From NCBI GenBank assembly GCA_964627625.1, contig CAZVJB010000002.1, positions 92,197 through 156,196 of the forward strand: a stretch of DNA of 64,000 nt. The letters run 5' to 3'. How positions within the stretch are numbered: position 1 is the first letter of the stretch; every line of letters starts with the position of its first letter. The DNA is from an uncultured Halobacteriales archaeon. Its GTDB lineage: Archaea > Thermoplasmatota > E2 > JACPAO01 > JAHFTW01. Below are positions 24,411 through 50,774 of the stretch, piece by piece. The position numbers and the translations under genes are program-made. A model generated the notes under the pieces. That model was given only the letters and a program-made list of their open reading frames with translations, did no database searches and was not told the DNA's origin.

Positions 24411-25643
24411 CTATTGCACGAAGTCGATGCCGCCGGGGCCCGGTTGGGCTTGGCCGCGGCCGCTGCGTGTCCCGACGCTGGTCGGGCGGTCGAACTTGAA
24501 GCCGGTTTCCTGGCGTTCTTGCCGGGCCGGTCCGCCGCTCGGGGTGCGCGTCGGGGCTGCGTGGTTGCGCGCTCCGCCGGCGTTGGGCGTCTGGACCGTT
24601 TGGACTTGGGCCTGGTGTTGGCCGTTGCCCTGGGGCATCGGGTTCATCGCTTCGACGGTGCTGATTCCAGTCATGATCGCCATGACCCTGCAGCGGCCTT
24701 CGAATTGGGGCAGCACGCGGGCGCCCCAGATGACGTTGGCGTGGGAGTCGAGTTCGTAGGTGAGTCCCTCGGCGACTTCCTCAGCGTGCTTCAAGGTGAG
24801 GTCGGGGCCGCCGGTGATGTGGATGAGGGCGCCGGTCGCGCCGCGGTAGTCCACGTCGAGGAGCGGGTGGTTGAGGGCCTCGGAGACGACCGATGAGGGG
24901 CCGTCGGAGACCTTGGCCTCGCCCCAGAGCATGACGGCGACGCCGCCTTCGCCCATGATGGCTTTCACGTCAGCGTAGTCGAGGTTGATCAAGGACGGCT
25001 GGGTGATGGTCTCGCTGATGCCCTTGACGGTCTCGGCGATGAGTTGGTCCATGACCGAGAAGGCCTGGTCAATCGGGAGGTTGGGGACGTAGTTCAGCAG
25101 GCGGTTGTTGTCAAGGACAATGACCGAGTCGGCGCGGGAGCGCAGCTTCTGCAGGCCTTCGTCGCCGCGGATGATGCGGGCGCGCTCGACGTTGAACGGT
25201 GTTGAGACCATGCCGACGACGATGGCGCCCATTTTCTTCGCCACGTCTGCGACGACTGGGGCGGTCCCCGTGCCGGTGCCGCCGCCCATGCCGGCCGTGA
25301 TGAAGACCAGGTCGGCGCCCTTCAGCATCTCTTCGAGCTTGCCGCGGGCCTGCTCGGCGCAGCGTTCGGCAACCTCGGGGTAGCCGCCGGCGCCTAGGCC
25401 GCGGGTGATGGTCTTGCCGACCAGGAGTTTCTTGTCAGCCTCAACGAGGTCAAGCGCTTGCTTGTCCGTGTTGATGGCGATGGTCTCGGCGCCCTTGACG
25501 CCGACCTTGTGCAGGCGGTTGATCGTGTTGCCGCCTGCGCCGCCGCAGCCGACAATGACAATCTTGGGCTCGCCAAAGTTCTCGTATTCTTTGAGTTCCT
25601 GCTCTTGGGCGTACCCAACAGCGACTCCAATCAGGCTTTGCAT
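24411..25643 (-). CDS. ftsZ: Cell division GTPase FtsZ (archaeal paralogue, probably the ftsZ2-type because cdrS is upstream)
   Basis: [18 protein letters not shown]…[11 protein letters not shown]…[19 protein letters not shown]… is the tubulin/FtsZ GTP-binding signature, with a Q/G-rich C-terminal tail. The track ORF begins at an upstream TTG. The start is placed at the in-frame ATG (MQSLIG). Confidence 0.9.
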
Positions 25644-25766
25644 GGTGTGTTCAGCTCCTCCACTTTTTTTCTGACGACGATATGCTGGGAGGTGACGGGG
25701 GTCGTCGTCGGCCCCCGCCACCTTTGTGCATCCCATCCCAGCCTGGTGAGGCAAGGACTGTTACGG

Positions 25767-27899: not shown

Positions 27900-28320
27900 C
27901 GATGGCGGCCCGGCGTAAGGCGGGGACTAGGTTGAGGGAATAGGCACCCCTACCAGGCGCAAGTCTACATGGCGCGACCGAACCCCTGTCGTGGCGCTCG
28001 GGGTCCGCTGCAAGCCCTCGTCTTACGGTGAAACCTCGTCCCCCGAGGTCGGCGGTGGCGGGAAACTTTCCGGAAGGGAAGCCGAACGCCTTCGCTGCGG
28101 GGACCGGGTCAGGCCCGGAAGGGAGCAGCCTTACCGCAAACGACCGACGTTTGGGGGGGCGCGGGGTGGAGAACAACGAGGGATTCATCTTGCACGGGTC
28201 TCGGGTTGCCGCGGCAGGAGTGTCCCCGCCCGCTAAAGGCTACGGCCTTCTGGCCGTGATTCCACGGACGAAGGATTCCGCTGATTCTGACGTAGGGCCG
28301 GGGCGGGGGCCGTCATCGAA
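27900..28320 (+). ncRNA. ffs: Signal recognition particle RNA (7S / SRP RNA); ends approximate
   Basis: The window contains GGUCAGGCCCGGAAGGGAGCAGCC (28101-28127), which matches the universally conserved SRP RNA helix-8/domain IV consensus GGUCAGGUCCGGAAGGAAGCAGCC. The ~400-nt region is GC-rich, highly self-complementary and has no credible ORF. The 5' and 3' ends could not be fixed by eye. Confidence 0.55.
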
Positions 28321-32384: not shown

Positions 32385-33464
32385 CTACAACAGCCCTGCC
32401 TTCTGCAGCGTAAGCAAGTCCTCGGTGGAGAGTTTTTCGCCGGCCTTGAACTTCTGGAACACTGCCTCTGCTGCCGCTTCGGAGCGCGCCTGGCTCGCTT
32501 CTGAGCGGCTGGAGCCCGGCGGTGCACCCGACGTGGCCTGCTGGTCTTCGATGTCGTGGATTGCGTTCACGAATTCGATGTACGTCTTGTGAATCTTGTC
32601 GGCTTCCATCTTGGAGATGACGAAGCGCTCTTGCAGTTTGTCTGCGGTCTTGCGCAGTTTGTCCGACTGCTTGTAGAGCTTGATCATGGCGTCGTGCTCG
32701 CCTTGTGCCTTCTCGGCCATCTCGCCGACCTTGGCGTGCGACTTCTCGGCCTTCTCCTTCAGTTCGTCGGCCTTCTCGAGTGCCGCCTTGAGTTCCGGGT
32801 CGGCGCGCAGGCTCTTCTCCTTCTCGCGGATCTGTTTGCCGATCTCCTTGAGGCGCTCCATGAGGGCCTTCTCCTTGGAAACGGTGAGGACGGACGTCAT
32901 CTGCTGGAACTCAAGCTGCTTGGCTTCCTTCTTGAGTTTGGCGACGGTGAGGGTGGCGTCGCCTTCAGGCATGCGTTCGCGGCGCAACGTATCGGCTGCC
33001 TTGCCGGAGTCGTCGGCCGTTCGGTTAGCCTCATCGCGACCTTCTTTGGCGCGCTTCACGCCCTCATTTAATTCATCGCGGCGCTTTTTGTGTTCGTTGG
33101 CCTCGTTGACAAGGCCGCGGACCTGGGCGTTGAAGCCGTCGCGTTCCTCGGCGTGCTTGCGGGCCTCGTCGTTGAGGTGGTCGCGTTCGCGGCGCAGGAG
33201 GTTTGCACGGTTCTGCAAGTCCTCCTTCTTCATGCCCGGTTTGGGGCCGTTCGGGTTTGGCACAACCGGGGCGGCCGGGGTAGCCGGCGCGGGCGTTTCG
33301 GAAGGCTCGGACGTCGCGGGCGCATCGGCTGCGGCGTCTTCGGGGGTCGAGTCGGCCGGCGGCGCCTGCGTGTCGTCAAGCAAGTCGGCGTTCAGGGGGC
33401 TCGGGACGGGCTCGGGGGGCGCACTCTCGTGCGCGACCGAGGCCACTGTAGTGGGCTCGCTCAT
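32385..33464 (-). CDS. Coiled-coil protein with a Pro/Ala/Thr-rich N-terminus, hypothetical
   Basis: About 250 aa of heptad-like, K/E/R-rich sequence (…LRRERDHLNDEARKHAEERDGFNAQVRGLVNEANEHKKRRDELNEG…). Start taken at MSEPTTV. Confidence 0.5.
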   Translation of the reverse strand: MSEPTTVASVAHESAPPEPVPSPLNADLLDDTQAPPADSTPEDAAADAPATSEPSETPAPATPAAPVVPNPNGPKPGMKKEDLQNRANLLRRERDHLNDEARKHAEERDGFNAQVRGLVNEANEHKKRRDELNEGVKRAKEGRDEANRTADDSGKAADTLRRERMPEGDATLTVAKLKKEAKQLEFQQMTSVLTVSKEKALMERLKEIGKQIREKEKSLRADPELKAALEKADELKEKAEKSHAKVGEMAEKAQGEHDAMIKLYKQSDKLRKTADKLQERFVISKMEADKIHKTYIEFVNAIHDIEDQQATSGAPPGSSRSEASQARSEAAAEAVFQKFKAGEKLSTEDLLTLQKAGLL

Positions 33465-33636
33465 GATCCAGTCACCAGGATGTTTCGCGCGAGACCCATC
33501 CCCTACATAACGAATATGGGCGCGGCGGCCTTGCACCGTGGCCTGCGTCGCCCGGTCAGCAATCGGGCTACAATGGTTAAGTGCCTCGAGGTCATTACTG
33601 GGGATGGCCTGCGGGCCGTGGAGGTCATGTGGACCC

Positions 33637-35883
33637 ATGCTGATGCGCCGGTCGTCGCTCTTCGCGGGATTGGTGGTACTCGTCGCTTGCGCCCTCGCGA
33701 CACCGGCCTGGGGGGCCATCGACTCCGCAACGTACGGCACGAAGGTCATGACCTGGGAGGCCCTTTGCAATCCCGCGGCGCCCGAGGTCGCGCCGGGGAC
33801 CTTGCCGGCGTGCCCCGGCCCGTCCATCACCATCACGCTGCCCACGGACCTCATGGCGACGACGGCCTTCTGGGAAGGCAACGCCGCCTATGTGCTGGGC
33901 GGCGTGAACGAGTGGCACTCACCGACGGTGCCGACCGAGACCGATGCGGTGCTCAAGTTCACGCGCGGCATGCAGGTCGGCGTGTTGCCCGTCTACGAGC
34001 CCAACCAGCCGGGCGGCCTCGTCGTCGGTGCCGGCGCCCTGCCGGCCCCAGCCGCCAACCAGGCATTGGCCTACGACGCCACGGGCAAGGTTGCCTACCT
34101 CTTCGGCTCCAGCAACGAGGGCCGCTTGTCGGATGCGATTTACAGCTACTCGCCCCTCACACAGACGTCGGCGACGATGCCCTGCGTCCTTCCCCGCAAG
34201 TTCGACCTCATGGCCGGCGCGTGGGCGAGCGGCAAGGCGTACCTCTTCGGCGGCCGCTATCTGGAGGGCAACGGCGACACGGTGGCCTTCAGCCTGCACA
34301 ACTCCAACGAAATCTACCGCTTCGACCCCGCGACCTGCGCCTTCAATCTGAACCCGTACCCACTCGCGACCGTCGCGGGCGCGAGCGGGACTGCCGAGGG
34401 CAAGCGCTTCGGGATGACGGCCGTCACCGTTGGCGCGGAAGTCTTCCTCTTCGGCGGCACGTTCATGGACGATGTCGCCGGGACGACGCCCGCCGAGGTC
34501 GGGGGAGGCGCCTACGCGTACAATCCCGTGTGCCCGACTGGGGCGCCGCCCTACGCGCCATGCCCGGTAGCCCAGTGCTCCATCCTGAAGTTTATTCCAG
34601 CCACGGGCGCGACCACCGTCCTGCTCTCCTCCTCCGCGCTCTGCGGCCCCCTCGCTGCCGTGTACGATGGGCAGTTCATCTACGCCTTCACAGGGAGCTC
34701 GGCCTACCGGTACAATCCTGCCACGCCCAGCTCGCCCCCCGTCTACGTCGCCGCGCTGGCCACCGGTGTCGGGCGCGGCGGCCTGTCCGCGACGTCCGCG
34801 GTGAGCACCGGCTGCAGTGCGTACATCTTCGGTGGCCTAATCCGGCCCCCGCCGTTCCTGCCGGACCCCGCCGCCCTCATGGGCGACCCCTACGACCGGG
34901 CGCTCATCTCCGACAAGATCCAGTGGTTCGGCAAGTGCCGCCCGCAAGCCGTCATCGCGCCCACCTACGGCTACACATGCCCCAACTACCCCATCTGGTT
35001 CGACGCCAAGTTATCCACCGTGGGCGAGGGCGACATCATGCAGGCGGCGTGGACGTTCGGCGACGGCACGTCCATCCCGTACTCGTGGTGGTTCGCGCAT
35101 CCCCCTGACTGGTACCCGCAGGCCGCGTTCGTGTCCCACACCTACACGAAGGAAGGCAACTTCCCAGTCACGCTCTCGATTCGCGACGCCAACGGCCTCG
35201 TCTCCACCGCGTCCGTCGTCGTCCCGGTGCGCCAGGACCCCGTGTGCACGACCTTCGGCGGGACACCCCATGTCGCCCGGGCACTGCGATATCCTGAGGG
35301 CGTGGCACTTGACAGCGACCTCGACGGCATCCCCGACGGCGGCGACAACTGCCCCGGCATCGCCAACAACGCGCAGGGCGACCGCGACGGCAACGGCGTC
35401 GGCGACGACTGCGACGAGACTGCGATGCAAGGCGACGGAGGCCCGCCCGCCGCGCCTTCGTCCACTCCTGCTGCGCCTGATCGTGACCGCGACGGCGTGC
35501 CCGACGCCGCGGACAACTGCGCCGCCGTCCCCAACCACGACCAGGCGGACGCCGACATCGACCGCAACGGCGACGTCTGCGACGCCGACATCGATGGCGA
35601 CGGCGTCTCCAACGCCGGCCCGCCGGGCGCGTTCCTCGACAACTGCCCATGGTACGCCAACGTGGATCAGGCGGACCAGGACCTCGATGGCGCCGGCGAC
35701 GAGTGCTCGTTCGGCGCGATGCCAGCCCTCGCTCGGGATGCCGGCGAAGTGCACGCAAGCGCGGCACGCACGTCTGGGTCGCCACCTTGGCTTGCGGCCT
35801 TCACGGTGGCCGCCGTTGCCACGCTCGGCTGCGCGGCGCTGCTTGGCCTCGCGCTGCGCCGACCCGGTGGCCGCCGGCCATAG
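33637..35883 (+). CDS. Type-I membrane surface protein: signal peptide, Kelch-like propeller, PKD domain, thrombospondin type-3 (TSP3) repeats, C-terminal TM anchor
   Basis: Signal MLMRRSSLFAGLVVLVACALATPAWG. Kelch-like blades (AYVLGG…, AYLFGS…, AYLFGGRY…, VFLFGGTF…, YIFGG…). PKD …WTFGDGTS…SHTYTKEGNFPVTLSIRDANG…. TSP3 DxDxDGxxDxxDNC repeats (DSDLDGIPDGGDNCPGIANNAQGDRDGNGVGDDCD; DRDRDGVPDAADNCAAVPNHDQADADIDRNGDVCDADIDGDGV). TM LAAFTVAAVATLGCAALLGLAL followed by RRPGGRRP. Confidence 0.75.
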   Translation: MLMRRSSLFAGLVVLVACALATPAWGAIDSATYGTKVMTWEALCNPAAPEVAPGTLPACPGPSITITLPTDLMATTAFWEGNAAYVLGGVNEWHSPTVPTETDAVLKFTRGMQVGVLPVYEPNQPGGLVVGAGALPAPAANQALAYDATGKVAYLFGSSNEGRLSDAIYSYSPLTQTSATMPCVLPRKFDLMAGAWASGKAYLFGGRYLEGNGDTVAFSLHNSNEIYRFDPATCAFNLNPYPLATVAGASGTAEGKRFGMTAVTVGAEVFLFGGTFMDDVAGTTPAEVGGGAYAYNPVCPTGAPPYAPCPVAQCSILKFIPATGATTVLLSSSALCGPLAAVYDGQFIYAFTGSSAYRYNPATPSSPPVYVAALATGVGRGGLSATSAVSTGCSAYIFGGLIRPPPFLPDPAALMGDPYDRALISDKIQWFGKCRPQAVIAPTYGYTCPNYPIWFDAKLSTVGEGDIMQAAWTFGDGTSIPYSWWFAHPPDWYPQAAFVSHTYTKEGNFPVTLSIRDANGLVSTASVVVPVRQDPVCTTFGGTPHVARALRYPEGVALDSDLDGIPDGGDNCPGIANNAQGDRDGNGVGDDCDETAMQGDGGPPAAPSSTPAAPDRDRDGVPDAADNCAAVPNHDQADADIDRNGDVCDADIDGDGVSNAGPPGAFLDNCPWYANVDQADQDLDGAGDECSFGAMPALARDAGEVHASAARTSGSPPWLAAFTVAAVATLGCAALLGLALRRPGGRRP

Positions 35884-36002
35884 CCGCGTCACGAAATCCG
35901 CCGGCGCCCCGACTTGCACTCAGGAGACGGGCCAGAAACCGTAAATATGCCCGACGGTGCTGTCAGAAGTGGCACAGCGTGCCTCTGGAGTCGCGTCGTC
36001 AC

Positions 36003-38447
36003 ATGTCTTTCCGTATCGTGTCCCTATGTCTTGCCGTCGCCCTGCTTGGGGCCCTCGTGTCGCCGGCGGAGTCCGCGGTAATCCCGGGAATCGACATAAT
36101 CGATTCGTGCACGTATTCCAATTCGGGTTGCCCGACACCGCCACTGCCTATCCTTCCGGCGCCGCCCATCGGGAACGGGTTCCCAATCAACGACGTGTGG
36201 AGCCCGTATTGGAACACCGCCTCGGCTTATGGTCCGCAGCTTGTCACGCATACCGACTTGTGCAATACGGCCCCCGAGCCAATCACCGTCATCGTGGGCC
36301 AGAACCTGGTCACATGCGTCAACGCACAAGGCCCGCCGAGCCCGGGGTGTCCCTGCCCGCCGACACCGGAGCCCATCCCGATTCCGCTACCCTCCCAATT
36401 GTGGTACTCCACGGCCTTCTGGGATGGTAGCGACGGCTACATTCTCGGCGGGGCCATCGACCTTGACGGCTCCGAAACGAGCGCGGTGACGAAGTTCAGT
36501 CGCGGCATGCCGCAGGGCCCGCTCTACGATCCTCCGTACGAGCCCATCCAGCCGGGGGGGGTATTGCAGTCGGCAGGCTCGCTGCCAACTGCGCGCTCGA
36601 ACCAAGGGCTTGCGTACGATACAGCTGGCAACATGGCATACCTGTTTGCCGGCACGAACGGCGGCGAGCTGGACAACAGCATCTACAGCTACACGCCCGT
36701 GACCCAGAGCTCCGGCACGGCGCCGTGCGTCCTGCCCCGCAACTTCGACAAGATGGCGGGCGCGTGGGCGGAGGGCGCCGCCTACGCGTTCGGAGGGCGC
36801 TACCTCGAGGGCAACGGCGACACGGTCGCCTTCAGCCTGCATACCTCCAATGAAATCTACAAGTTCGACCCGTCCACCTGCACGGTCACACTGAATCCGT
36901 TCAATCTCCCCCCGAACGGGGCCGCCAATCCCTACACGCCGGACGGCAAGCGGTTCGGCATGACGGCCGTGACGGTCGGCACCGAGGTCTTCCTGTTTGG
37001 CGGGTTCTTCATGGATGATGTCGCCGGGACCACGCCGACGGAGGTCAACAGCGGTGCCTACGCGTACAACCCGTTGTGCGGCGTTGCCCCACCACAGCCA
37101 CCGTACCTTCCGTGCACGGTGCCACAGTGCTCCATTCTCAAGTTCACGCCGGCCACGGGCATCGTGACGACCATCAATCCGTCGTTTGCGAGCTTGTGCG
37201 GGAACATGTCCGCCGTCTACGACGGCAAGTACATTTTCCTGTTCAAGGGCGGCAGCGCTTACCGGTACGACCCTGCCACGCCAACCATCATGCCCACCTT
37301 TGCAGCCAGTCTGCCGGTCGGCATTGGCCAACCGCTCAAGGCCAACGACTACAGTCGGGGCGGCACCGAAGGGACCTCGGCCATCGCGACGGGATGCAGC
37401 GCCTACATTTTCGGGGGCAAGGTGGATTTCGCCGTTCCTCCTGTCACGACTGCACCCGATGGCCCCATCTCGGACAAGATTACCTGGTTCGGCAAGTGCC
37501 GGCCAACCGCGGTCTTGGCGCCGACCTACGGCTACACCTGCCCGTTCTACCCTATCTGGTTTGACGCCCGCTTCTCGATTGTGGCGGAAGGCGACTTCAA
37601 GAAGGTCACGTGGAACTGGGGCGATGGCACACCGTCGCAGACGGGCTGGTATTTCCCGCACTCCCCTGACTGGTACGACCAGTACGCCTTCCTGCCGCAC
37701 ACCTTCACGAACGAAGGCAATTTCGTGGTCACGATGACAGTGGAGGACTTCAACGGCTTCAAGTCGAGCGCACAGACAACGGTCCCGATTCGAACCGATG
37801 CCGTCTGCACGATGTATGGCGGCACACCGCACACGGGGGCGACGACAATCACGTATCCGGACTCCGAGTCCTTGGACAGCGATCTTGACGGCATCCCCGA
37901 CGTTTCGGACAACTGTGCGGGCGTTGCGAACAACGACCAAGTTGACGAAGACGCCGATGGCGTGGGCGACGAATGCACGACCGCGCCTGTCGACGAGGAA
38001 AAACCGGTGATTCAGCCAGCCCCACCCGAGGTCGTCATGCCCGACAAGGATCGCGACGGCATTCCGGACGTTCGCGATAACTGCAGGGCTTTGCCCAATC
38101 ATGACCAGTCTGACTTGGACACCGATTTGGCTGGCGACGTCTGCGACGTGGACATCGATGGCGATGGCGTTTCGAATTCAGGCCCGCCCGGCGCGTTCTT
38201 GGACAATTGTCCGTGGTACGCCAACCCGGACCAGTTGGACTCGAACGGCGACGGCGCCGGCGACGAATGCGCCTTCATGGAGGGCGCGTTTGCCAAGCCG
38301 AAGGCGGCTGGCCCGGCGGCGGCAGGCGATGTCGCGAAGCCGTCTTCGCTGCCGTGGGCCGCCGCAACCGGGATGGCCATCGCGGCCGCGCTCGGCACAG
38401 TCTTCCTACTCATGGTCCTGCTACGCCGGACCCGGCGCCCCGAGTAG
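36003..38447 (+). CDS. Paralogous type-I membrane Kelch/PKD/TSP3 surface protein (tandem duplicate of 33637-35883)
   Basis: Same architecture and many identical motifs (AYLFAGTNGGELDNSIYSYTPVTQSSGTAPCVLPRNFDKMAGAWA…, PKD WNWGDGTPS…, TSP3 DSDLDGIPDVSDNCAGVANNDQVDEDADGVGDEC, DKDRDGIPDVRDNCRALPNHDQSDLDTDLAGDVCDVDIDGDGV). TM MAIAAALGTVFLLMVLL followed by RRTRRPE. ATG at 36003. Confidence 0.75.
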   Translation: MSFRIVSLCLAVALLGALVSPAESAVIPGIDIIDSCTYSNSGCPTPPLPILPAPPIGNGFPINDVWSPYWNTASAYGPQLVTHTDLCNTAPEPITVIVGQNLVTCVNAQGPPSPGCPCPPTPEPIPIPLPSQLWYSTAFWDGSDGYILGGAIDLDGSETSAVTKFSRGMPQGPLYDPPYEPIQPGGVLQSAGSLPTARSNQGLAYDTAGNMAYLFAGTNGGELDNSIYSYTPVTQSSGTAPCVLPRNFDKMAGAWAEGAAYAFGGRYLEGNGDTVAFSLHTSNEIYKFDPSTCTVTLNPFNLPPNGAANPYTPDGKRFGMTAVTVGTEVFLFGGFFMDDVAGTTPTEVNSGAYAYNPLCGVAPPQPPYLPCTVPQCSILKFTPATGIVTTINPSFASLCGNMSAVYDGKYIFLFKGGSAYRYDPATPTIMPTFAASLPVGIGQPLKANDYSRGGTEGTSAIATGCSAYIFGGKVDFAVPPVTTAPDGPISDKITWFGKCRPTAVLAPTYGYTCPFYPIWFDARFSIVAEGDFKKVTWNWGDGTPSQTGWYFPHSPDWYDQYAFLPHTFTNEGNFVVTMTVEDFNGFKSSAQTTVPIRTDAVCTMYGGTPHTGATTITYPDSESLDSDLDGIPDVSDNCAGVANNDQVDEDADGVGDECTTAPVDEEKPVIQPAPPEVVMPDKDRDGIPDVRDNCRALPNHDQSDLDTDLAGDVCDVDIDGDGVSNSGPPGAFLDNCPWYANPDQLDSNGDGAGDECAFMEGAFAKPKAAGPAAAGDVAKPSSLPWAAATGMAIAAALGTVFLLMVLLRRTRRPE

Positions 38448-38572
38448 CGGCGTCAGCCATGCGCAAGCCTGCCGCAAGGACAGCCGGCGCTGCCACCGGC
38501 GCAAGCCTTAGTTTTTGGCCACGGATGTCCGTTTCTTGGGGGCAGGCCCGGTCAAGGCGTCCCATAAAGGCT

Positions 38573-39883
38573 ATGTTGCTTGCCGATGCTCCAAGAGCGG
38601 GTATGTTGGGTCACGCAGTTCGCGCCGCCGGGCAGGATGCCGCTCCGCCGCCGCAGGCAATTCCGCGTTCGACGGTCGGGGGGCAGACGACCTTCGCCGG
38701 CCGATACCTGATTCTCGTTGCAGCGGCCATCGCGCTTTGCCTGCTCATTTTCCTCCCAAATACGGCAGACGCACAATGTGCTCCTGGTCCGCCTCCGAAC
38801 GACTGTTTTGCCAGCGCCAAGACCGGTTCGGGCGAGTATTCGAATACCCAAAGCACCATCGGTGCCACGAACGAGGTCAGCGAACAGGTACCCATGACTG
38901 CGGCCGACGCAGTGGGCGCCACGATTTGGTACAGTTGGACTGCCCCGTACGCCGGCACGGCAAGCGTGAGCCTGTGCGGCTCCGACTACAACTCGGTGCT
39001 TGCAGTCTGGACGGGTTCGGCCATCGGGTCATTGTTCCTGGTGACCTACAACGACGATGGGTGCGGCGGCATCGGTGTTCCAAGCCAGCTGAGTTTCACC
39101 TGCGCGGCCAACACCGTCTACCGGATTCAGGTCGCCGGTTGGTCGCAATCGGTTGGCAATGCGAGACTCACAATCACGGGTTGCACGACCCCGCCTCCCT
39201 CGCGGACTGATTCCGACCAGGATGGCGTCGAAAACGATGCCGACAACTGTCCTGCCATCAACAACAACCAGGACGACCTCGACCGTGACGGCGAGGGCGA
39301 CCCCTGCGACGCCGACCGCGATGGTGACGAGATTGCCAATGGGGTCGACAATTGCCCGGATCTTGCCAACCCAAATCAGACGGACGAGGATGAGAACGGC
39401 ATAGGAGATGTCTGCGAGGGCGCGGATGGCAGCGGCACGGTGGAGACACCACCGTCGCAGGAAGTTGACTCGGATCTCGACAGCGTCCCCGACAATGCGG
39501 ACAACTGTCCAGCCGCAGCCAATCGCTATCAAGACGACCTCGATGACGATAACATCGGCGACTTGTGCGATTCTGACCTGGACGGCGACGGGGTGTCCAA
39601 CGAGGCCATTGCCGACGATGGCATTGTCGCCACGTTCACGGACAACTGCCCGCAAGTACCCAATCCGGACCAGTTGGACAGCGACGGCGACGGCAAGGGT
39701 GATGCGTGTCAATTCCTGGCTGGCTGGACCCCGCAGAAAGGCGGCTTGCCGGCGCCCGGAAGTTCGGCCGAGCGTGCAGAGTCGAAAACGATGTGGTTCA
39801 TGGCCGCAATCACGGTGGGCGGCGCCGTTCTCGTGGCCGCCCTAGTCGGCCTTGTCGTCGCGATGATACGCCGCAAATCGTAG
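38573..39883 (+). CDS. Type-I membrane protein with a Cys-containing N-terminal beta domain and four or more TSP3 repeats
   Basis: TM/signal YLILVAAAIALCLLIFL. Domain CAPGPPPNDC…YNDDGCGG…SQLSFTCAANTVYRIQVAGW. TSP3 repeats DSDQDGVENDADNCPAINNNQDDLDRDGEGDPCDADRDGDEIANGVDNCPDLANPNQTDEDENGIGDVC…DSDLDSVPDNADNCP…. C-terminal TM MWFMAAITVGGAVLVAALVGLVVAM followed by IRRKS. The start is 38573 or 38603. Confidence 0.7.
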   Translation: MLLADAPRAGMLGHAVRAAGQDAAPPPQAIPRSTVGGQTTFAGRYLILVAAAIALCLLIFLPNTADAQCAPGPPPNDCFASAKTGSGEYSNTQSTIGATNEVSEQVPMTAADAVGATIWYSWTAPYAGTASVSLCGSDYNSVLAVWTGSAIGSLFLVTYNDDGCGGIGVPSQLSFTCAANTVYRIQVAGWSQSVGNARLTITGCTTPPPSRTDSDQDGVENDADNCPAINNNQDDLDRDGEGDPCDADRDGDEIANGVDNCPDLANPNQTDEDENGIGDVCEGADGSGTVETPPSQEVDSDLDSVPDNADNCPAAANRYQDDLDDDNIGDLCDSDLDGDGVSNEAIADDGIVATFTDNCPQVPNPDQLDSDGDGKGDACQFLAGWTPQKGGLPAPGSSAERAESKTMWFMAAITVGGAVLVAALVGLVVAMIRRKS

Positions 39884-40034
39884 GGCTGCGCCATTGGCGC
39901 GCCGGCGCTAGGATTGTGGCGCGCAGCACGCGCGCAGAAGCGCGCCGCGCCGGCGCCCGCGGCCCGACCCGCGCGCGTCCCGGCCATTTGGGGGCCTTCC
40001 GTTCGACCCGCTTCTTGGACATAAATGTTAAGCC

Positions 40035-43000
40035 TTGAACAGGGTCGTGCCGCCTATGCGCTGGCTGGTTCTAGCCGCTTTATTGATGGTTGCGTTGCCG
40101 GTTTCAGCTGTCGCTCCGTTGTCGCTTGACCTGGGCCAATTCACCCCCCCTGGCGCGGCGCCGGCCGCGGACAACAAGCACGATGATTCGGCAACCGACC
40201 CGTGGGCCTGGCTTCCTCGCGCTCATGCGGATGCGCATTTCGAAGCGGTCCTCGGCAATTCACCCGGCATCCTGGGCCTCGACGCCCTTGCCACCGAAAC
40301 AGAGGGTTCACCCACTACCTCGCCCCCCGTCATCCCAACCGGTGACTACCCGGTGGGTTGGGTCACCGCGTTCCTCGGCAGCCCGCGCATCCTGCGCATG
40401 GCGGACCTCGACGGCGACGGAGGGCGCGACGTTGTCGCCGGCACGGACCTTGGTGTGGTCGCCGTTGATGGAAATACCGCGCAAGTTCGTTGGTTCCGGC
40501 CGATTGGCAACGGCGTGCGCGGCCTCGAGATTGGTCAGTACGACGGCGGCAAAGGCCAGGACGTCGCGTACGCGACAGGCTGGGGCGCACGGGACCCCTT
40601 GGCTGCGGTTGTCTCGGGCGTCACGGGCAGCGTCCTTTGGCAAGTGGACCTGCCTTCTCCGGCGTTGACAATCGCCTTGGTCCCAGGCGACAAACCGGAC
40701 ATGCTGGTCGCAACGATGGCCGGAACGCACGTTCGGCTTGCCGGCGCTGACGGCGCGACCGTCTGGTCGACCGACTCGAACCTGCTCCCTAGCACTGGCG
40801 CCGTCGTTGCCGGTTACTTCAACCTCGGCCACTACCTTGCATCCGCCGGCGACGTCAACGGCGACGGCACACCAGATCTGGTGAGCGCGGCCCTCGTCTA
40901 CTACTACGCCTCCGCCCCGCTGGCCGTCTGGTCCTTCAATGAGTTCACCATGCTGAGCGCCGTTGACGGTGCCACGGGCAACATGCTTTGGCACCACCCG
41001 ATTGGCGCCGAGCCGACCGCGGACTTCTCCTTCACCGTCCTCTCGGACTTGGACGCCCTCGACACGAAGGGCGACGGCTCGCTGGATATCGCGTACACGG
41101 GTGCCACCATGCGATTCGACGCGGCGATTGTGTCCTACCGTCCATTCCTGCGTGTCGTCGATGGCGCAAGTGCAGTCGTCGGGACCCTCCTTGGAACGCG
41201 CGAGACCGCCTCTTCCCAGGTCCGCCTGGAATTGTTCGTCGCGCTCGACCATACCGATGTCAACGGGGATGGCCGCGACGAAGCCGTGGTGCTGCGTGAG
41301 TCCATCGTGCAATCGCTGACGGTCGGAGGCAGCCTGTTCTTGGAGCGCTTCGCCTTTGCCTCGGACCCCACCACGGCCGGCCTCATGCTCGTCCTTTCCG
41401 ACATTTCGTTGCCCTTTTCGTACGGCGCGTGGCTTGCACCAACAAGTGCTGCGCCCGGGGCCCGCGACGTAGCAGTCCTGATGCCTTGGGCCGATGGCTC
41501 CGTGGAGCGCATCGACGCAGCCGGAAAATCCGTTGGCGTGCGTGAGTTTGCGTCGCAAGGCGCCATGTCTATCCTCGACATGGAAGGCGTGACGGTCGTC
41601 GGTACGGAGGCGGGTCTTGAGTTCAGCGACCACACCTTCGCCAAGATCGGCGCGCAGACCCTCTTCTTCGGCCGCCCCTTGCAAATTGAGGTTGTCCCCG
41701 CGTCGGGTGCCCCCGTCATCGCGGTGCGCTCCTCGGACCACGCAATTCACGTGCTCGACCCCGTAACCGGACAACGCATGCTCCGGACCGTCGTCCCGGG
41801 CCTGAATTCCCTGCATGCGGATACGCACGCCGACACGGGTCTGCTGTTCGTCGGCTCCTACGTTCAGGGTGACTTTGACTCAAGTCGCCTGATGGAGGCT
41901 TGGCACATGCCTGAGGCCACCGTTGTGTGGTCGCAAAAGTACGGCGGCTACAGTTATGGCGTCCCCGGGGGCGTCCATTGGTTCGATGGCAATGGTGATG
42001 GCATCGACGACGCCTTGGTCCAAGCGGGCTATGCAGGAAGCGGCAAGTACTCCATCAAGGCCGTAAGCGGGTCAGACGGCTCGACTCTGTTCGACGCTGC
42101 CCTACCCGCGGGCGCATTCTCATACTACTTCTATCAGGCGGCCACGGTTCGCTTCGGCGGCCACGCGGGCGACGATTTCGTTCTTGCGGACTGGCGGTAC
42201 ACCTGGGCCTTCGAGGGCTCCACCGGGAAAAACCTGTGGAAACTTGAACTCGATTACGAACCCGACTGCATGACGGCGGCGGACTTCGACGCCGACGGCG
42301 CAGAGGCGCTGCATTACATGCGGTACGATTGGCGCTCGCGCGATGTGGTCATCGGCCAAGTTGGCTTGGATGGCAAGGCGCAAGAAACCGCGCTGCCAGG
42401 CGACGACAATTTCTGGATCAATTGCTGGTACGCTCAAGGCCCAAGCAAAACGGTGCTGGTCGCCTTCGCAAGTTATTATGGCGGCGGCAAATCGCTGGCG
42501 GGAGCCATCGCCTTCGACGCCTCTGGAATCCGCTGGAGCACGCTTGTGGACGTCCGCGAGGAGGACGCCACGGCCTTCACGCCCTTGGCCGTCGATGCGA
42601 CTGCGTACGGTGGCGGTCGCGTGTACGGCGGTTTCGGCGCTGCGCTGCGCGTTGCGAACTTGGACGACGGCGCGACGGTGACCGACGTGTCGCTAGACGT
42701 TCGGCCAAGCAGCATCAAGGTTCTCGACTTGGATCACGTCGGAGACCTGGACTTCATCCTGTCTACGCCCGATGGGCTTCTTCGCGGCATGGGCGCCGAC
42801 CTCAAACTGGTCGTTCCAGGTGAGGGACCGGGCGACGGGACCGATCCGGGGGCCCGCATCGATGACGGCGTTCTGCCGGGCGATGCAGTCGAGGGGGGCG
42901 AGCCCGGCGACGGTGGCGCGGCACGGCCGATTGAGGCGGACGGGGACGGCGGCAAGACCAGCCCCGACCTGCCCACGACAATCGTCGTGGCGGCCCTGTT

Positions 43001-43037
43001 GGGCCTTGTCATACGCAAGCGTCGCCGCAGCGCCTAG
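40035..43037 (+). CDS. 1000-aa type-I membrane protein with integrin-alpha-like FG-GAP/VCBS beta-propeller repeats
   Basis: Signal MRWLVLAALLMVALPVSA. Recurrent Ca-binding-like DxDGDGxxD loops (DLDGDGGRDVV, DVNGDGTPDLV, TKGDGSLDIAY, DVNGDGRDEAV, DGNGDGIDDAL, DFDADGAEAL). A Gly/Asp/Pro-rich stalk, then TM TTIVVAALLGLVI followed by RKRRRSA. Confidence 0.75.
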   Translation: MNRVVPPMRWLVLAALLMVALPVSAVAPLSLDLGQFTPPGAAPAADNKHDDSATDPWAWLPRAHADAHFEAVLGNSPGILGLDALATETEGSPTTSPPVIPTGDYPVGWVTAFLGSPRILRMADLDGDGGRDVVAGTDLGVVAVDGNTAQVRWFRPIGNGVRGLEIGQYDGGKGQDVAYATGWGARDPLAAVVSGVTGSVLWQVDLPSPALTIALVPGDKPDMLVATMAGTHVRLAGADGATVWSTDSNLLPSTGAVVAGYFNLGHYLASAGDVNGDGTPDLVSAALVYYYASAPLAVWSFNEFTMLSAVDGATGNMLWHHPIGAEPTADFSFTVLSDLDALDTKGDGSLDIAYTGATMRFDAAIVSYRPFLRVVDGASAVVGTLLGTRETASSQVRLELFVALDHTDVNGDGRDEAVVLRESIVQSLTVGGSLFLERFAFASDPTTAGLMLVLSDISLPFSYGAWLAPTSAAPGARDVAVLMPWADGSVERIDAAGKSVGVREFASQGAMSILDMEGVTVVGTEAGLEFSDHTFAKIGAQTLFFGRPLQIEVVPASGAPVIAVRSSDHAIHVLDPVTGQRMLRTVVPGLNSLHADTHADTGLLFVGSYVQGDFDSSRLMEAWHMPEATVVWSQKYGGYSYGVPGGVHWFDGNGDGIDDALVQAGYAGSGKYSIKAVSGSDGSTLFDAALPAGAFSYYFYQAATVRFGGHAGDDFVLADWRYTWAFEGSTGKNLWKLELDYEPDCMTAADFDADGAEALHYMRYDWRSRDVVIGQVGLDGKAQETALPGDDNFWINCWYAQGPSKTVLVAFASYYGGGKSLAGAIAFDASGIRWSTLVDVREEDATAFTPLAVDATAYGGGRVYGGFGAALRVANLDDGATVTDVSLDVRPSSIKVLDLDHVGDLDFILSTPDGLLRGMGADLKLVVPGEGPGDGTDPGARIDDGVLPGDAVEGGEPGDGGAARPIEADGDGGKTSPDLPTTIVVAALLGLVIRKRRRSA

Positions 43038-43345
43038 ACGTCATTTCATGCCCTCCTGCGGGCCGAATCTGTTTTCCCGTGGCCTCAGGCACGGCGGCCG
43101 CAGATGACGCAGATTGCACAGATTTCCCCGCAGGGAATCTGCGAAATCTGCGGCTGCCGGCCGGGGGCTCGGCCTGGAAAAACGGGGCCAACCCGAAGGA
43201 GTTCTGAAACAGCCTCTAATGCCACGGCCACTCCGGTCATGCCCTTGCGCCTTGGGCGGACAAAGAATAAGCTCAAATGGGTCAACGGCTCGGGCCTTCT
43301 GTCGGGTGGGGGCCTCGTGGCTGCCTTTCCGATTGTTGGCACCTG

Positions 43346-43849
43346 ATGCTGGACGACCAAACCGTCCGCGGCCTTTTGCAGGCCTACCACGATTCCACGC
43401 AGGGCGAGGATGGGGTTCCTACACCGCTCATGATTCTCCACGGCCTGCGGGAGGAGGTCACGATCCGCCCGCACATCGAATTACCGTCGGCGTACCACAT
43501 GGCCCACTACCTCGACGAATTCGTGACGGAACGCACGATAGGCATCACCGTGTGTGGTCGCTTCTTCAAACAGATTGGCGAGAAGGTCTTCCAGGGCACG
43601 CTCCTGTACCACGTCGACCGCATCGGCAGCCACCTGATTCGCGGCATCAACGCGCAGACCGGCCTCTACACCGTCCTCGACGATTCGCCGTACTGGAACA
43701 AGTTCCCCTACGACTTTGACCAGGGACCGCAAGACCCAGACTTGCCCATCGGCTACCACCCGGGGCCAGAACTTGAAGAGGGCGAAGGTGCAGCCGATGA
43801 TGACAAGACAGCAAACGCGGCCGCCGGCGACGACGACAGCGAACCCTGA
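43346..43849 (+). CDS. Hypothetical protein with an acidic C-terminal tail
   Basis: MLDDQTVRGLLQAYHDS…ITVCGRFFKQIGEKVFQGTLLYHVDRIGSHLIRGINAQTGLY… has globular-like composition. It lies immediately upstream of the ABC-F gene. No family was recognised. Confidence 0.4.
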   Translation: MLDDQTVRGLLQAYHDSTQGEDGVPTPLMILHGLREEVTIRPHIELPSAYHMAHYLDEFVTERTIGITVCGRFFKQIGEKVFQGTLLYHVDRIGSHLIRGINAQTGLYTVLDDSPYWNKFPYDFDQGPQDPDLPIGYHPGPELEEGEGAADDDKTANAAAGDDDSEP

Positions 43850-43906: not shown

Positions 43907-45712
43907 ATGAGCCAGCCACTCGTGAAGGCCGACGACCTGCACGTTAGCTTCGGCCCGACGCACGTGCTTCGCGGCGCGGGCTTCATCATCCATCCGGGCG
44001 ACAAGATTGCGCTTGTCGGGCCCAACGGCGCAGGCAAGACGACACTTTTCAAGATACTCTCGGGTCAGATTCGGCCTGATCTTGGCGAACTTGCGATGGA
44101 TCCGGACCTGCGCATCGCCTACATGCCGCAAGTCCCGGATATTCCGGCGGCCACTCCGGTGCAGGACCTGCTTGCGGCGCCGTCTGCCAACGCGCGTCGC
44201 ATCGAGCAGGAGATTGGCGGCCTCGAAGCGTGGATGGCAGACCCCGCCTCGTTCGAAGGGCCCGACGTCAACGAGAAGATGGCGCGGTACTCGGAGTTGC
44301 AGTCCCGTCTGCAGGAGGAGCGCAGCAAGGGCCGCGCCACGGATTCGCCGCTACTCAACGACCTCGGCCTGCCGGAGGAGACGCTGGAGGCGAATTTCGG
44401 CAGCCTGTCCGGCGGCGAACGCAGCAAAGTGCTTCTGGCCAAGGCGCTCGCTGCGGCCAAGGAAACCGACTTATTGCTGCTTGACGAACCGACGAACCAC
44501 ATGGACATCCCGACGGTGGAGTTCATCGAGCAGTACCTCATGGACTTGAAGGGCTCCGTCATCGTTTCCGCGCATGACAAGTACCTTCTGGACAACGTGG
44601 CCGACCGGGTCTTCGAGGTTGACCACCGCAAAGTCGCGTCGTACACGGGAAATTACTCCAGCTACCAGGCACAACGGCGGGCTCTGCAAGCCGCGATTGC
44701 CGCGCGCAAGGCCCGCAACGAGAACGAGGTCAAACGGCAACTCAAGATCATCGAGGAACTGAAGGTGCGTAACAAGTTCGACGCCCAGGTGCGCAGCCGC
44801 AAAACACGCATGAAGCACCTCGAGCAACCGCGCGAGGAGGCGCCAACGACGCGCAAGGCCTTCCGCATGCTCTTTGACACCGACACGCCGCCGCGCGAAT
44901 CCATTCAGATTGACGACGTTTCCAAGACCTTTGGCGAGCGCGTGCTGTTCTCGCATGTGACATTAGAGGTTGAGGGTGGCGACAAGATTGGCCTCATCGG
45001 TCCGAACGGCTGTGGCAAGTCGACTCTCATCAAGCTCATCACTGGCAAGATGCAGCCGAACGGTGGCACCATCAAGCGCGCGCCCGCCGTAAGCATCGGC
45101 TACTTCGACCAACATCACGAGGGCCTGCACCCCGAACGCACCCTGCTTGAGGAGGCGCAGAGCCTGCGTGACCCGCCTCCTCCCGACGAATGGAGCCGCG
45201 GCCTGTTGGGTCGTTTCCACTTCAGCGGCGACGAGGTCTACAAGAAAGTCAAGGAACTCTCGGGCGGTGAACGTGCGCGCCTCGCCTTGGCGAAATTCAT
45301 CGTCGGACGGCACAACACCCTCATCCTGGACGAGCCGACAAACCACCTCGACATCGAATCGCAGGAGATTGTTGCGGCGGCCCTGCGCGAATACGAGGGC
45401 ACCGTCATTGTCGTCTCGCACAATCGCAGTTTCCTCGATGAGGTCTCCAACAAAATCGCCATCATTGCGCATCGGCGTGTCGGGCTCTTCCCAGGGAATT
45501 TCAGTTCGGCGTGGGCCTCGAAGCGCATGTCCGAGTTTGCCGCCACCGGCGCCAAGGGGCGCTACAAGGTCCTGCGCGCGTTCAAGGATTGGGAAAGGGA
45601 CGCGAAGTTCCACTCGGGCGACATGATTACGATTACCGGCCTTGAGACCCAGGGTTTCCGACGCCTTCTGCGTTGGGCCGAGTCTGAAGGACGCATCGAA
45701 GAGATGACGTGA
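43907..45712 (+). CDS. ABC-F family ATPase (two tandem ABC cassettes, no TMD)
   Basis: Two Walker A motifs (GPNGAGKTT; GPNGCGKST), two ABC signatures (LSGGERSKV; LSGGERARL), two Walker B motifs (LLLLDEPTNHMD; TLILDEPTNHLD), and a charged linker between the cassettes. Confidence 0.85.
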   Translation: MSQPLVKADDLHVSFGPTHVLRGAGFIIHPGDKIALVGPNGAGKTTLFKILSGQIRPDLGELAMDPDLRIAYMPQVPDIPAATPVQDLLAAPSANARRIEQEIGGLEAWMADPASFEGPDVNEKMARYSELQSRLQEERSKGRATDSPLLNDLGLPEETLEANFGSLSGGERSKVLLAKALAAAKETDLLLLDEPTNHMDIPTVEFIEQYLMDLKGSVIVSAHDKYLLDNVADRVFEVDHRKVASYTGNYSSYQAQRRALQAAIAARKARNENEVKRQLKIIEELKVRNKFDAQVRSRKTRMKHLEQPREEAPTTRKAFRMLFDTDTPPRESIQIDDVSKTFGERVLFSHVTLEVEGGDKIGLIGPNGCGKSTLIKLITGKMQPNGGTIKRAPAVSIGYFDQHHEGLHPERTLLEEAQSLRDPPPPDEWSRGLLGRFHFSGDEVYKKVKELSGGERARLALAKFIVGRHNTLILDEPTNHLDIESQEIVAAALREYEGTVIVVSHNRSFLDEVSNKIAIIAHRRVGLFPGNFSSAWASKRMSEFAATGAKGRYKVLRAFKDWERDAKFHSGDMITITGLETQGFRRLLRWAESEGRIEEMT

Positions 45713-49151: not shown

Positions 49152-50774
49152 TCATCCGTGATGACTATGATGGCATGCGACCTGTTGGCCAAAGGCCGCG
49201 GCCGGCGGGGTGTTGTGTGCAGGACACGTCTCACCCTCCACTGGATTCCTTGTCAGCCACGGGTCAACGATGGCTTCCCCGTAAATGCTGCTGCCCGGTC
49301 CATCGTCCGACCCCCACCAATTCCAGCGCGCATCGACGGGAATCGTTGCAGCCGTGGGATTCCAATTGAATTGTGCCTGGTCAGTATTTACTAGGCCGTA
49401 GCGCGCATTGTCGACGAAGGTGTTGTTCCGGAAGACCGGCTTCTCTTGGCCGACCACGAAGGCGCCATCGACGAGGTTTCCCTCAAACGAGTTGCCCGAC
49501 ACCTCGGAGGTTCCAAGCGGACGACTGGAAAGTTGGCGCAGGATTGCGCCCTCCTCGTTGCCAACGAAGCGATTGTTGCGTATTCGAATCGGGTCTCCTT
49601 GTTGGTACAGACCGAACGAGGTCTGGCCTACAATCTCGTTTCCTTCAATCAAGACGGGAGCGTCCGTCGTCCAGATGCCGGCCGTGTTGTTCGCGATGAG
49701 GTTACCAAGGATATCGGCCTTGACGCCAGGCCCGCAATAGGGGTCGCCGCCATCGACCATGATTGCCATGCCAAATGGAGCGGCCCCGTTGTTCCCAACG
49801 ATTTGGTTTTCCTGGATGAGTACGTACGTTTCGGGACCACAGGCAAACCAACCTGCGGCGTTGTCCTCAACGATGTTCGCGTGAAACGTGGCCTGGCTTC
49901 CAGCCCAGGCCAGGAATGCAAAGTAGTTGCCGGACAGCGTGTTCCCTTCGAAGGCGGCCTGCGAATTGTGGAGTTTGGCGCCGAACGTGAAGCCGTGCAA
50001 AACGTTGCTCGCGAAGCTAAGTGCCTGGCTGTCGCGGACGATAACTGCCGCATCATCATCTATCGGAATCACGGATTTCTGCAGCGGACAGTTGACAAGG
50101 CCATCGCACGTGGTGTCCCGTAGGTCACGCAACATCGGGGAACGACTGGCGTTGACGAGCTCGTCACGAACCGCGTAACCCAAACGCGACGGAGGAGAAA
50201 CGACATTAGAGGTAAGGTCTATGGCGGTAGACGTCTCGACGACGACACCATAGGGATACCCATCCACACTGTTCGACTCGAAGTGCACGTTGGCGGCGTT
50301 CCACGTTCGCAGCCCAACCCATCCGGGGGGCATGACGAATGGGGCGCCGGGCTCGAGCCAATTGTAGGAATCGTCCGCTGTGGTGCCGACGTGGGTGCAT
50401 ATCCCCCAGGTGGGGAAGTTACAGATCACGAAGGGCGGCAAGTAAGCAGGCTGGAGCAACTCGTTGCCGCGCACCACGACATGGGCGTCCGTGTTGGCGA
50501 TGAATATGCCGGCGGCTGCACCCCCCACGATGGCCCAGTTCTGGATGATGTAGGGGTCAGTGGGCGTCCCAGTTCCGGACAGGACGCCGTTGGCCGCATT
50601 GAAATCCATGTTGGACAGGATTGTGATGGGAGCGCGCGGCGTCTTGGAAGGCACATCGGGCAAGATGGGTGCTTCATCGTCCGGGAGCGGAAGCTGCCCA
50701 ACGGCGGGCCCGGAGACGACGGTGGCCATGATTGCCAAGCCTGCCAGGATAGATGCGCGAATTTGAATCGTCAT
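49152..50774 (-). CDS. Secreted right-handed parallel beta-helix repeat protein (NosD / pectate-lyase-like fold)
   Basis: Signal MTIQIRASILAGLAIMATVVSGPAVG. Repeated N/G/V-rich ~22-aa PbH1-like turns (…NIVEDNAAGW…, …NQIVGNNGAAPFGMAIMV…, …GNLIANNTAGIWT…, …GNEIVGQTSFGLY…). Confidence 0.7.
   Translation of the reverse strand: MTIQIRASILAGLAIMATVVSGPAVGQLPLPDDEAPILPDVPSKTPRAPITILSNMDFNAANGVLSGTGTPTDPYIIQNWAIVGGAAAGIFIANTDAHVVVRGNELLQPAYLPPFVICNFPTWGICTHVGTTADDSYNWLEPGAPFVMPPGWVGLRTWNAANVHFESNSVDGYPYGVVVETSTAIDLTSNVVSPPSRLGYAVRDELVNASRSPMLRDLRDTTCDGLVNCPLQKSVIPIDDDAAVIVRDSQALSFASNVLHGFTFGAKLHNSQAAFEGNTLSGNYFAFLAWAGSQATFHANIVEDNAAGWFACGPETYVLIQENQIVGNNGAAPFGMAIMVDGGDPYCGPGVKADILGNLIANNTAGIWTTDAPVLIEGNEIVGQTSFGLYQQGDPIRIRNNRFVGNEEGAILRQLSSRPLGTSEVSGNSFEGNLVDGAFVVGQEKPVFRNNTFVDNARYGLVNTDQAQFNWNPTAATIPVDARWNWWGSDDGPGSSIYGEAIVDPWLTRNPVEGETCPAHNTPPAAAFGQQVACHHSHHG

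Follow-up and report, generated by a model that had tools for sequence, protein, structure and literature searches.

Tandem type-3-repeat surface proteins, probably calcium-stiffened, in a variable gene island of an uncultured Thermoplasmatota archaeon

We analyzed a 64-kb stretch of the 197,997-bp contig CAZVJB010000002.1 (assembly GCA_964627625.1), referred to below as the window, which carries a tandem array of three genes, here named A, B and C, and a more distant fourth gene, D, all encoding thrombospondin type-3 (TSP_3) repeats. Our observations suggest that A, B and C are probably calcium-stiffened binding proteins, anchored in the membrane at the cell surface of an uncultured Thermoplasmatota archaeon. 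They form a new, very narrow family of prokaryotic surface proteins, although both the repeat module and this kind of protein are already known. The host was assigned from two markers: an archaeal signal recognition particle (SRP) RNA at 27920-28229 (Rfam RF01857, 162.6 bits), which is the sole Rfam match in the window, and FtsZ (24411-25754, minus strand), which is 81-94% identical to the FtsZ of metagenome-assembled genomes (MAGs) named Thermoplasmatota archaeon, its best named matches.

TSP_3 repeats precede the membrane helix in all four proteins

The Pfam TSP_3 model (PF02412) matched the products of all four genes (A 59.2, B 58.5, C 92.2 and D 91.2 bits; E 3e-16 to 1.5e-26), each above the curated gathering cut-off of 25 bits. 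The first-pass annotation of this DNA, made from the sequence alone, had thus recognized the repeats correctly. Its count of 4-8 repeats per gene holds for calcium loops of the DxDxDGxxDxxD type (6 in A, B and D, 8 in C) and not for Pfam units, of which there are three in A, B and D and four in C. Each unit contains a Cys pair, and the repeat blocks hold 6 cysteines in A, B and D and 9 in C. A six-frame scan of the whole window confined the loop motif to these four genes. Furthermore, the repeat region of gene C matched the solved structures of COMP (E 4e-32) and thrombospondin-2 (E 3.5e-27), and its Asp and Cys positions are kept in the alignment with the wires of both proteins. Matches in PDB were limited to the TSP_3 repeat region, and Pfam gave no match to TSP_C, EGF or coiled-coil domains at E≤0.01 in A, B, C or D. 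Therefore, the four proteins share the repeat but are not thrombospondins.

The last calcium loop lies 37-40 residues ahead of the transmembrane (TM) helix in A, B, C and D, and 35-45 residues ahead of it in those TSP_3-bearing relatives of the gene D tail that we inspected. This fixed spacing points to the repeat block being a membrane-proximal stalk. All four proteins begin with a signal-like hydrophobic segment, and the sequences of A, B and C finish with one hydrophobic helix at the C-terminus and an Arg-rich stub behind it. Judged heuristically, by Kyte-Doolittle windows and sequence inspection, this is the type-I membrane topology that had been assigned at first pass. No CTERM model of NCBIfam matched at E≤0.01 (these models are short, and no search for a processing enzyme was made); a PGF, PEF or PEP motif is not present, and a conserved Trp alone precedes the TM helix.

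Domain architecture of A, B and C

Gene A (33637-35883, plus strand, 748 aa) occupies the open reading frame (ORF) placed at first pass, with a GGAGG 13 nt upstream of its ATG. Its product comprises a signal peptide (aa 1-26), a six-bladed Kelch-type propeller (~aa 70-430), a PKD domain (aa 436-529), a TSP_3 block of 6 calcium loops and 3 Cys pairs (aa 559-692, at 35311-35712) and a TM helix (~aa 717-740, at 35785-35856) with the tail RRPGGRRP. Gene B (36003-38447, plus strand, 814 aa) encodes a signal peptide at its N-terminus, a Pro/Cys-rich extension (aa 26-125) that is disordered in an AlphaFold model, a Kelch propeller (aa 130-496) supported by a fold search with the same model, a PKD domain (aa 501-593), a TSP_3 block of 6 loops (aa 625-757, at 37875-38273) and a TM helix (~aa 785-807; aa 784-807 in the model) with the tail RRTRRPE. 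Gene A lacks a ~55-residue core of the N-terminal extension, which is kept in B and in the homologues of two related loci described below (L002 and L004). Gene A has a G+C content at third codon positions (GC3) of 0.88; the range is 0.69-0.83 for B, C, D, the flanking genes and those housekeeping genes that were checked.

Gene C (plus strand) ends at 39883 and has an uncertain start. Its frame is open from 38207, and since this open frame overlaps the end of gene B, the true start was placed at ~38573-38680. The hydrophobic segment LILVAAAIALCLLIF stands just after this likely start. A head of ~115 aa, modelled with low confidence as a Cys-rich beta-sandwich, is followed by a TSP_3 block of 8 loops in 4 Pfam units (39209-39712) and a TM helix (~39788-39856) with the tail RRKS.

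PKD domains (PF18911 / PF00801, cut-off 27 bits) were found in A (47.9 bits), B (30.9 bits) and D (61.2 bits), in line with the earlier call for A and B. The Kelch call needed more support. Model PF24681 (cut-off 50 bits) was passed by gene D (77.5 bits) but not by A (34.6 bits) or B (32.3 bits). Among the Kelch models for single motifs, one passed in A (Kelch_4, 22.0 vs 21.6 bits) and none in B. As Kelch was below threshold in both, the product of gene B was modelled with AlphaFold from a 12-sequence alignment. The predicted local distance difference test (pLDDT) value exceeded 90 across most of aa 130-345, in the propeller, and was moderate (~60-70) in the TSP_3 part. The top Foldseek matches of this model in PDB were all six-bladed Kelch domains (NS1-BP, KLHL20, KEAP1 and KLHDC2; E ~1e-14, probability 1.0, target TM-score 0.66-0.80). 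On its modelled fold, the Kelch identity of B is therefore correct, albeit below the Pfam threshold.

For the head of gene C and the N-terminal extension of gene B, Pfam gave nothing even at E≤1. A single-sequence AlphaFold model of C, of low confidence (pLDDT 49.5 overall), suggests a nine-stranded beta-sandwich with weak fold matches to PliG, collagen-binding and pre-peptidase C-terminal domains (E 1e-3 to 1e-4), a hint that the head may resemble pre-peptidase C-terminal or collagen-binding modules.

N-glycosylation sequons number 0 in A, 1 in B and 1 in C, and cysteines 20, 23 and 15, respectively. The combination of few sequons and many cysteines points to disulfide rather than glycan stabilization.

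A and B are old paralogues

The first-pass annotation had described A and B as tandem duplicates of a recently expanding family and had named an assembly duplication as one finding that would overturn this. The two proteins are 57-59% identical, with identical blocks of up to 18 residues, so that their paralogy stands; at the DNA level their identity is 64%, with no exact match longer than 20 nt. Synonymous divergence (dS) is ~1.1, which is saturated, and the ratio of nonsynonymous to synonymous divergence (dN/dS, omega) is 0.2-0.3. The divergence of A and B is thus at least that among three related genomes (dS of flanking genes 0.63-1.04). These results show that A and B are old paralogues; they contradict a recent expansion and exclude a duplication introduced by assembly. 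What survives of the expansion claim is that island copy number and content differ between related genomes, with no recent burst.

The two Kelch-PKD-TSP3 copies of the related locus L002 share 74% identity (dS 0.67). In a neighbour-joining tree, the paralogues of each genome cluster together, as would be expected if they had either duplicated independently or undergone gene conversion.

Conserved genes flank a variable island that holds the array

Full-length relatives of A and B are few. A search among 5.8 billion protein clusters returned only four such proteins (A, B, P0002 and P0004), and the combination of Cys-rich Kelch propeller, PKD, TSP_3 and TM helix was seen in five proteins from three genomes. 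Scanning a genome collection gave one true relative (L002) and one match to TSP_3 only. Two scans of JGI metagenome contigs, one with the family alignment and one with B alone, gave partial TSP_3 or PKD matches and no new members.

P0002 is located in L002 (JAZJZE010000002.1), a MAG contig labelled 'bacterium', where the order is DUF7121 (minus strand), two Kelch-PKD-TSP3 genes, a 523-aa TSP_3 protein and an FG-GAP protein. P0004 is located in L004, in a third assembly, with DUF7121, one Kelch-PKD-TSP3 gene and a short TSP_3 protein. In the window, the array is bounded on the left by a DUF7121 coiled-coil protein (32385-33500, minus strand; Pfam 145 bits), which is divergent from gene A, and on the right by a 190-aa protein without a Pfam match (43277-43849, plus strand) and an ABC-F ATPase (43907-45712, plus strand).

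Evolutionary rates differed sharply between the island and these flanks, both of which are conserved in the three assemblies. Flanking genes showed a nonsynonymous divergence (dN) of 0.01-0.10 and an omega of 0.02-0.13: DUF7121 has 81-88% amino acid identity across the island neighbours in L002 and L004 (omega 0.11), and the ABC-F ATPase 85% identity to its L002 counterpart (omega 0.09). Island genes were 47-59% identical, with a dN of 0.36-0.49 and an omega of 0.3-0.5 at a dS similar to that of the flanks. Hence, island proteins diverge several-fold (4-5x) faster than their neighbours. We conclude that the array belongs to a variable island of surface-protein genes, framed by conserved genes and turning over at about the pace at which species diverge.

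The 190-aa protein is extremely constrained, with 98% amino acid identity to its L002 counterpart despite a dS of 0.63 (omega 0.02). DUF7121 is the divergent left neighbour of a Kelch-PKD-TSP3 gene in all three genomes, and the genes beyond it differ; this adjacency may reflect plain vertical synteny or a functional link.

A fourth island gene (40035-43037, plus strand) encodes an FG-GAP/PQQ-type beta-propeller surface protein of ~1000 aa that has a C-terminal TM helix with the tail RKRRRSA and no TSP_3 loops. Its likely true start is the M at 40056; the AT-rich ATAAATGTTAA at 40021 lies upstream. An FG-GAP protein holds the same island position in L002 (13585-19029). The two proteins gave no BLAST match to each other, and the L002 protein (1814 aa) carries TSP_3, whereas its counterpart in the window does not.

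The public records of L002 and of a further protein, P0249 (MES2155186.1), are labelled 'bacterium' and probably belong to mislabelled MAGs. An archaeal origin is indicated indirectly for L002 by its flanks (DUF7121, the 190-aa protein and ABC-F), which are 81-98% identical to those of the archaeal window, and for P0249, also indirectly, by ribosomal proteins S24e and S27e on its contig.

TSP_3 proteins in other prokaryotes

The repeats had been called rare in archaea at first pass. Our searches do not bear this out: TSP_3 proteins are abundant in prokaryotes and have already been reported in Thermoplasmatota. At E≤1e-5, a search with gene D matched 1,388 of the 8,000 candidates scored. Of the 120 matches listed, most carry TSP_3 and a minority match by PKD alone; source names among the matches listed include Anaerolineae, Acidobacteria, Actinomycetota, Paceibacterota and Nanoarchaeota. 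Rinke et al. found thrombospondin genes, which they read as adhesion genes, to be widespread in Poseidoniales, members of the same phylum as the host of A to D (PMC6461757). In Nitrosopumilus, Bayer et al. reported TSP_3 proteins as induced surface components (PMC6593220). Two bacterial systems are cited in the latter paper, namely the TT3R linkers of OmpA-family proteins, with their repeat structure (Dai et al. 2017), and the thrombospondin-like locus of Myxococcus (Zhang et al. 2007, PMC2168718).

The repeat of A to D is the same as in the wire of metazoan thrombospondins and COMP (PDB 3FBY, 1YO8, 2RHP and 1UX6), with alternating DxDxDGxxDxxDNC and DxDxDGxGDxCD loops and one Cys pair per unit. 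Unlike the metazoan proteins, A to D have no detected coiled-coil oligomerization domain, EGF repeats or lectin-like TSP_C domain. Their 6-8 loops lead directly to a membrane helix; thrombospondins have 13 calcium loops. With the prokaryotic TT3R proteins they share an acidic, disulfide-pinned repeat module, expected to bind calcium, in exported envelope proteins. The anchor differs, as A, B and C are held by a C-terminal helix and the OmpA-family TT3R proteins by an OmpA domain. A likeness was also seen to MtsC, a MYXO-CTERM protein of Myxococcus cell-cell cohesion, in which TSP_3 likewise stands just before a C-terminal hydrophobic helix and basic tail. The match to the MtsC model (NCBIfam NF047638) scored 89-139 bits against an equivalog cut-off of 350 bits and covered profile positions ~190-266 only. 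Unlike in MtsC, a MYXO-CTERM signal was not detected and the host is archaeal; the repeats alone align.

Gene D encodes a predicted transmembrane regulator

Gene D (51098-53488, plus strand, 796 aa; gene callers start it 25 aa upstream) is ~32% identical to A and B. Its ectodomain consists of a signal peptide, a Kelch propeller and a PKD domain, followed by a TSP_3 block of 6 loops (52478-52801) and a TM helix (~52892-52960, ORF aa 641-670). Beyond the helix, the same uninterrupted ORF continues for ~180 residues with two cytoplasmic winged-helix domains in tandem (~53072-53245 and 53321-53443), which matched HTH_HVO_0163_N (32.6 bits, cut-off 31) and HTH_24 (28.3 bits, cut-off 21.9). The first-pass annotation had listed this gene as a fourth member of the repeat family; TSP_3 is indeed present, but the winged-helix tail shows that it is not simply a fourth adhesin. 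A search of PDB sequences with the tail gave only weak ArsR-type matches (E≥0.15).

Transmembrane transcription regulators (TTRs), which by definition unite a TM region with a DNA-binding domain in a single chain, are reported to be widespread in archaea (Demey et al. 2023, PMC10269533). With a TM helix and a tandem winged helix in one polypeptide, gene D belongs to this class and is predicted to be a single-pass transmembrane transcription regulator. As in TTRs, one TM helix links a sensor ectodomain to a DNA-binding domain; set against them, its distinctive parts are the C-terminal tandem winged helix (HTH_HVO_0163_N and HTH_24) and the Kelch-PKD-TSP3 ectodomain.

The tail belongs to a large family. 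An exhaustive HMMER search gave 3,753 relatives at E≤1e-3 (499 at E≤1e-10), and in most of the 3,753 the match is the C-terminus of a protein of 650-1500 residues. By hydropathy, most of the first 60 relatives have a signal-like N-terminal segment and about half have a TM segment shortly before the tail. Among the best 62 representatives of the 3,753, HTH_24 was found in all 62 and HTH_HVO_0163_N in 61, TSP_3 in 15 and PKD in 12, and Kelch in D alone. The organism-named relatives sampled were two Thermoplasmata/Thermoplasmatota MAGs and one 'bacterium'.

The closest relative of the D tail (47% identity) is a 502-aa protein with PKD, TSP_3, TM helix and tandem helix-turn-helix (HTH) domains in locus L006 of a related genome (5487-9509 of JAWVGZ010000008.1, GCA_040384205.1). 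The gene of an 834-aa TSP_3 surface protein stops 10 nt upstream of this regulator gene, and the gene pair adjoins archaeal ribosomal proteins S24e and S27e. The 10-nt adjacency suggests the existence of surface-protein/regulator pairs.

The remainder of the window

The window has a G+C content of ~64% and also encodes UvrB and malate dehydrogenase; no tRNA genes were found in it. Divergently from gene D, a secreted protein of the NosD/right-handed beta-helix type is encoded at 49152-50774 (minus strand). A large surface-protein gene begins 40 nt after the end of gene D. It is represented by two overlapping ORFs (53528-54604 and 54228-57308) that look like one gene encoding a signal anchor, FN3, cadherin-like/Big_9 and PKD domains and a C-terminal TM helix, apparently interrupted where the frame shifts by one base at a C7 homopolymer (C-run 54182-54193). 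An assembly error, a pseudogene or phase variation could each account for the split.

Proposed function of A, B and C and alternatives

We propose that the N-terminal signal peptide would export A, B and C and that the C-terminal helix would hold them in the membrane, with the short basic stub in the cytoplasm. The outermost part would be a ligand-binding head, formed in A and B by the disulfide-rich six-bladed Kelch propeller and the PKD domain and in C by the small beta-sandwich. Between head and membrane, three to four TSP_3 units, with six to eight Asp-rich loops and a Cys pair to pin each unit, would fold only around bound Ca2+, by analogy with thrombospondin/COMP and the bacterial OmpA repeats. 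Folding of this kind would yield a calcium-stiffened stalk that keeps the head at a fixed distance from the membrane. For calcium binding, the role of the stalk and a presumed function in binding or adhesion, we draw on the solved homologous repeats and on published work about related proteins. It is plausible that A, B and C act at the cell surface or in adhesion in a calcium-dependent manner, and such proteins of Thermoplasmatota are usually read in this way in the literature (PMC6461757). Furthermore, the fast divergence of the island and its changes in copy number would be natural for proteins exposed to particles, other cells or viruses.

Several points weigh against this proposal. The family is tiny, which makes the comparative support thin. 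The omega of 0.3-0.5 in the island shows relaxed or mixed constraint, leaving diversifying selection unproven. The Kelch scores of A and B are sub-threshold, and the TSP_3 part of the gene B model has moderate pLDDT values only. In metazoan thrombospondins, the wire folds against the C-terminal lectin-like domain, which is missing in A to D. Finally, the near-lack of sequons is unusual for exposed archaeal surface proteins.

It is also conceivable, although unlikely in our judgment, that A, B and C are structural and build a calcium-cross-linked coat, such as a glycocalyx or an S-layer substitute, on a cell possibly devoid of a wall. The numerous acidic calcium loops per protein would suit such a coat, as would the clustering of large TM-anchored surface proteins in the window (40035-43037, 49152-50774 and 53528-57308), the partial match of the TSP_3 region to the Myxococcus cohesion protein MtsC and the discussion of Nitrosopumilus TSP_3 proteins as matrix components (PMC6593220). 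However, coat proteins are usually conserved, abundant and encoded by a single gene, whereas the family described here is narrow, fast-evolving and copy-variable, and Kelch-type heads are typical interaction modules.

The shared ectodomain set of A, B and D raises another, rather unlikely possibility, in which A, B and C would be tail-less paralogues of D-type regulators, acting as co-receptors or decoys in signal input and not in adhesion; any interaction between the two would be conjectural. The size of the tail family, the presence of TSP_3 in 15 of its best 62 representatives, the surface-protein gene that ends 10 nt before the regulator gene in L006 and the large surface-protein gene that starts 40 nt after gene D are all consistent with such a partnership. 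Conversely, 11 kb of DNA with unrelated genes separates gene D from the array, its identity to A and B is only ~32%, and no D-like gene was seen within the homologous islands of L002 and L004.

An enzymatic or lectin role of the propeller appears improbable. A, B and D do show weak, sub-threshold Pfam/NCBIfam matches to galactose-oxidase-type Kelch motifs, and gene D alone has a match, also weak and sub-threshold, to N-acetylneuraminate epimerase. These could hint at a catalytic propeller, either galactose/glyoxal-oxidase-like or a NanM-type sugar epimerase, or at carbohydrate binding for substrate capture. In keeping with such a role, polysaccharide-degrading enzymes that marine bacteria secrete commonly contain TSP_3 (PMC2386152). 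The propeller of galactose oxidase, however, has seven blades, but the top structural matches of the gene B model are all non-enzymatic, six-bladed protein-interaction Kelch domains, and no enzyme family of Pfam or NCBIfam reaches its cut-off.

A collapsed or expanded assembly repeat, or recent transfer from an animal, is suggested by nothing other than the tandem arrangement and the general impression of TSP_3 as 'metazoan', and its probability is negligible given the 64% DNA identity and 20-nt longest exact match of A and B, the presence of the same array between the same flanks in independent assemblies, a GC3 within the host range and the lack of Pfam matches to TSP_C and EGF domains; with synteny in three archaeal assemblies, animal-to-archaeon transfer is ruled out.

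Significance for Thermoplasmatota surface biology

A, B and C are thus best viewed as a lineage-specific family assembled from well-known modules, in a phylum in which thrombospondin-type genes have already been read as adhesion genes. The array illustrates clearly how a fast-evolving island of surface-protein genes can sit between conserved neighbours, and it puts right the notion of type-3 repeats as something exotic in archaea.

The regulator family of gene D, with more than 3,700 proteins, is a more promising lead than the array itself. It joins large ectodomains, often ending in a TSP_3 block, to a cytoplasmic tandem winged helix. We tentatively raise the idea, which we hold to be doubtful, that TSP_3, linker and TM helix form a portable juxtamembrane cassette in Thermoplasmatota, connecting interchangeable heads of extracellular-matrix-like character (Kelch, PKD, cadherin-like and beta-propeller) either to a short stub, as in A, B and C, or to a winged-helix tail, as in D. 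With the stub the product would be an adhesin, and with the tail it would signal directly from membrane to DNA. If so, A, B and C on the one hand and D on the other would be two outputs of one large archaeal surface-sensing system, possibly calcium-gated, in which surface protein and regulator are paired. Should the regulators of this family read the cell surface directly, they would offer a tractable entry into the sensing of particles, neighbours or calcium by wall-less or lightly walled archaea.

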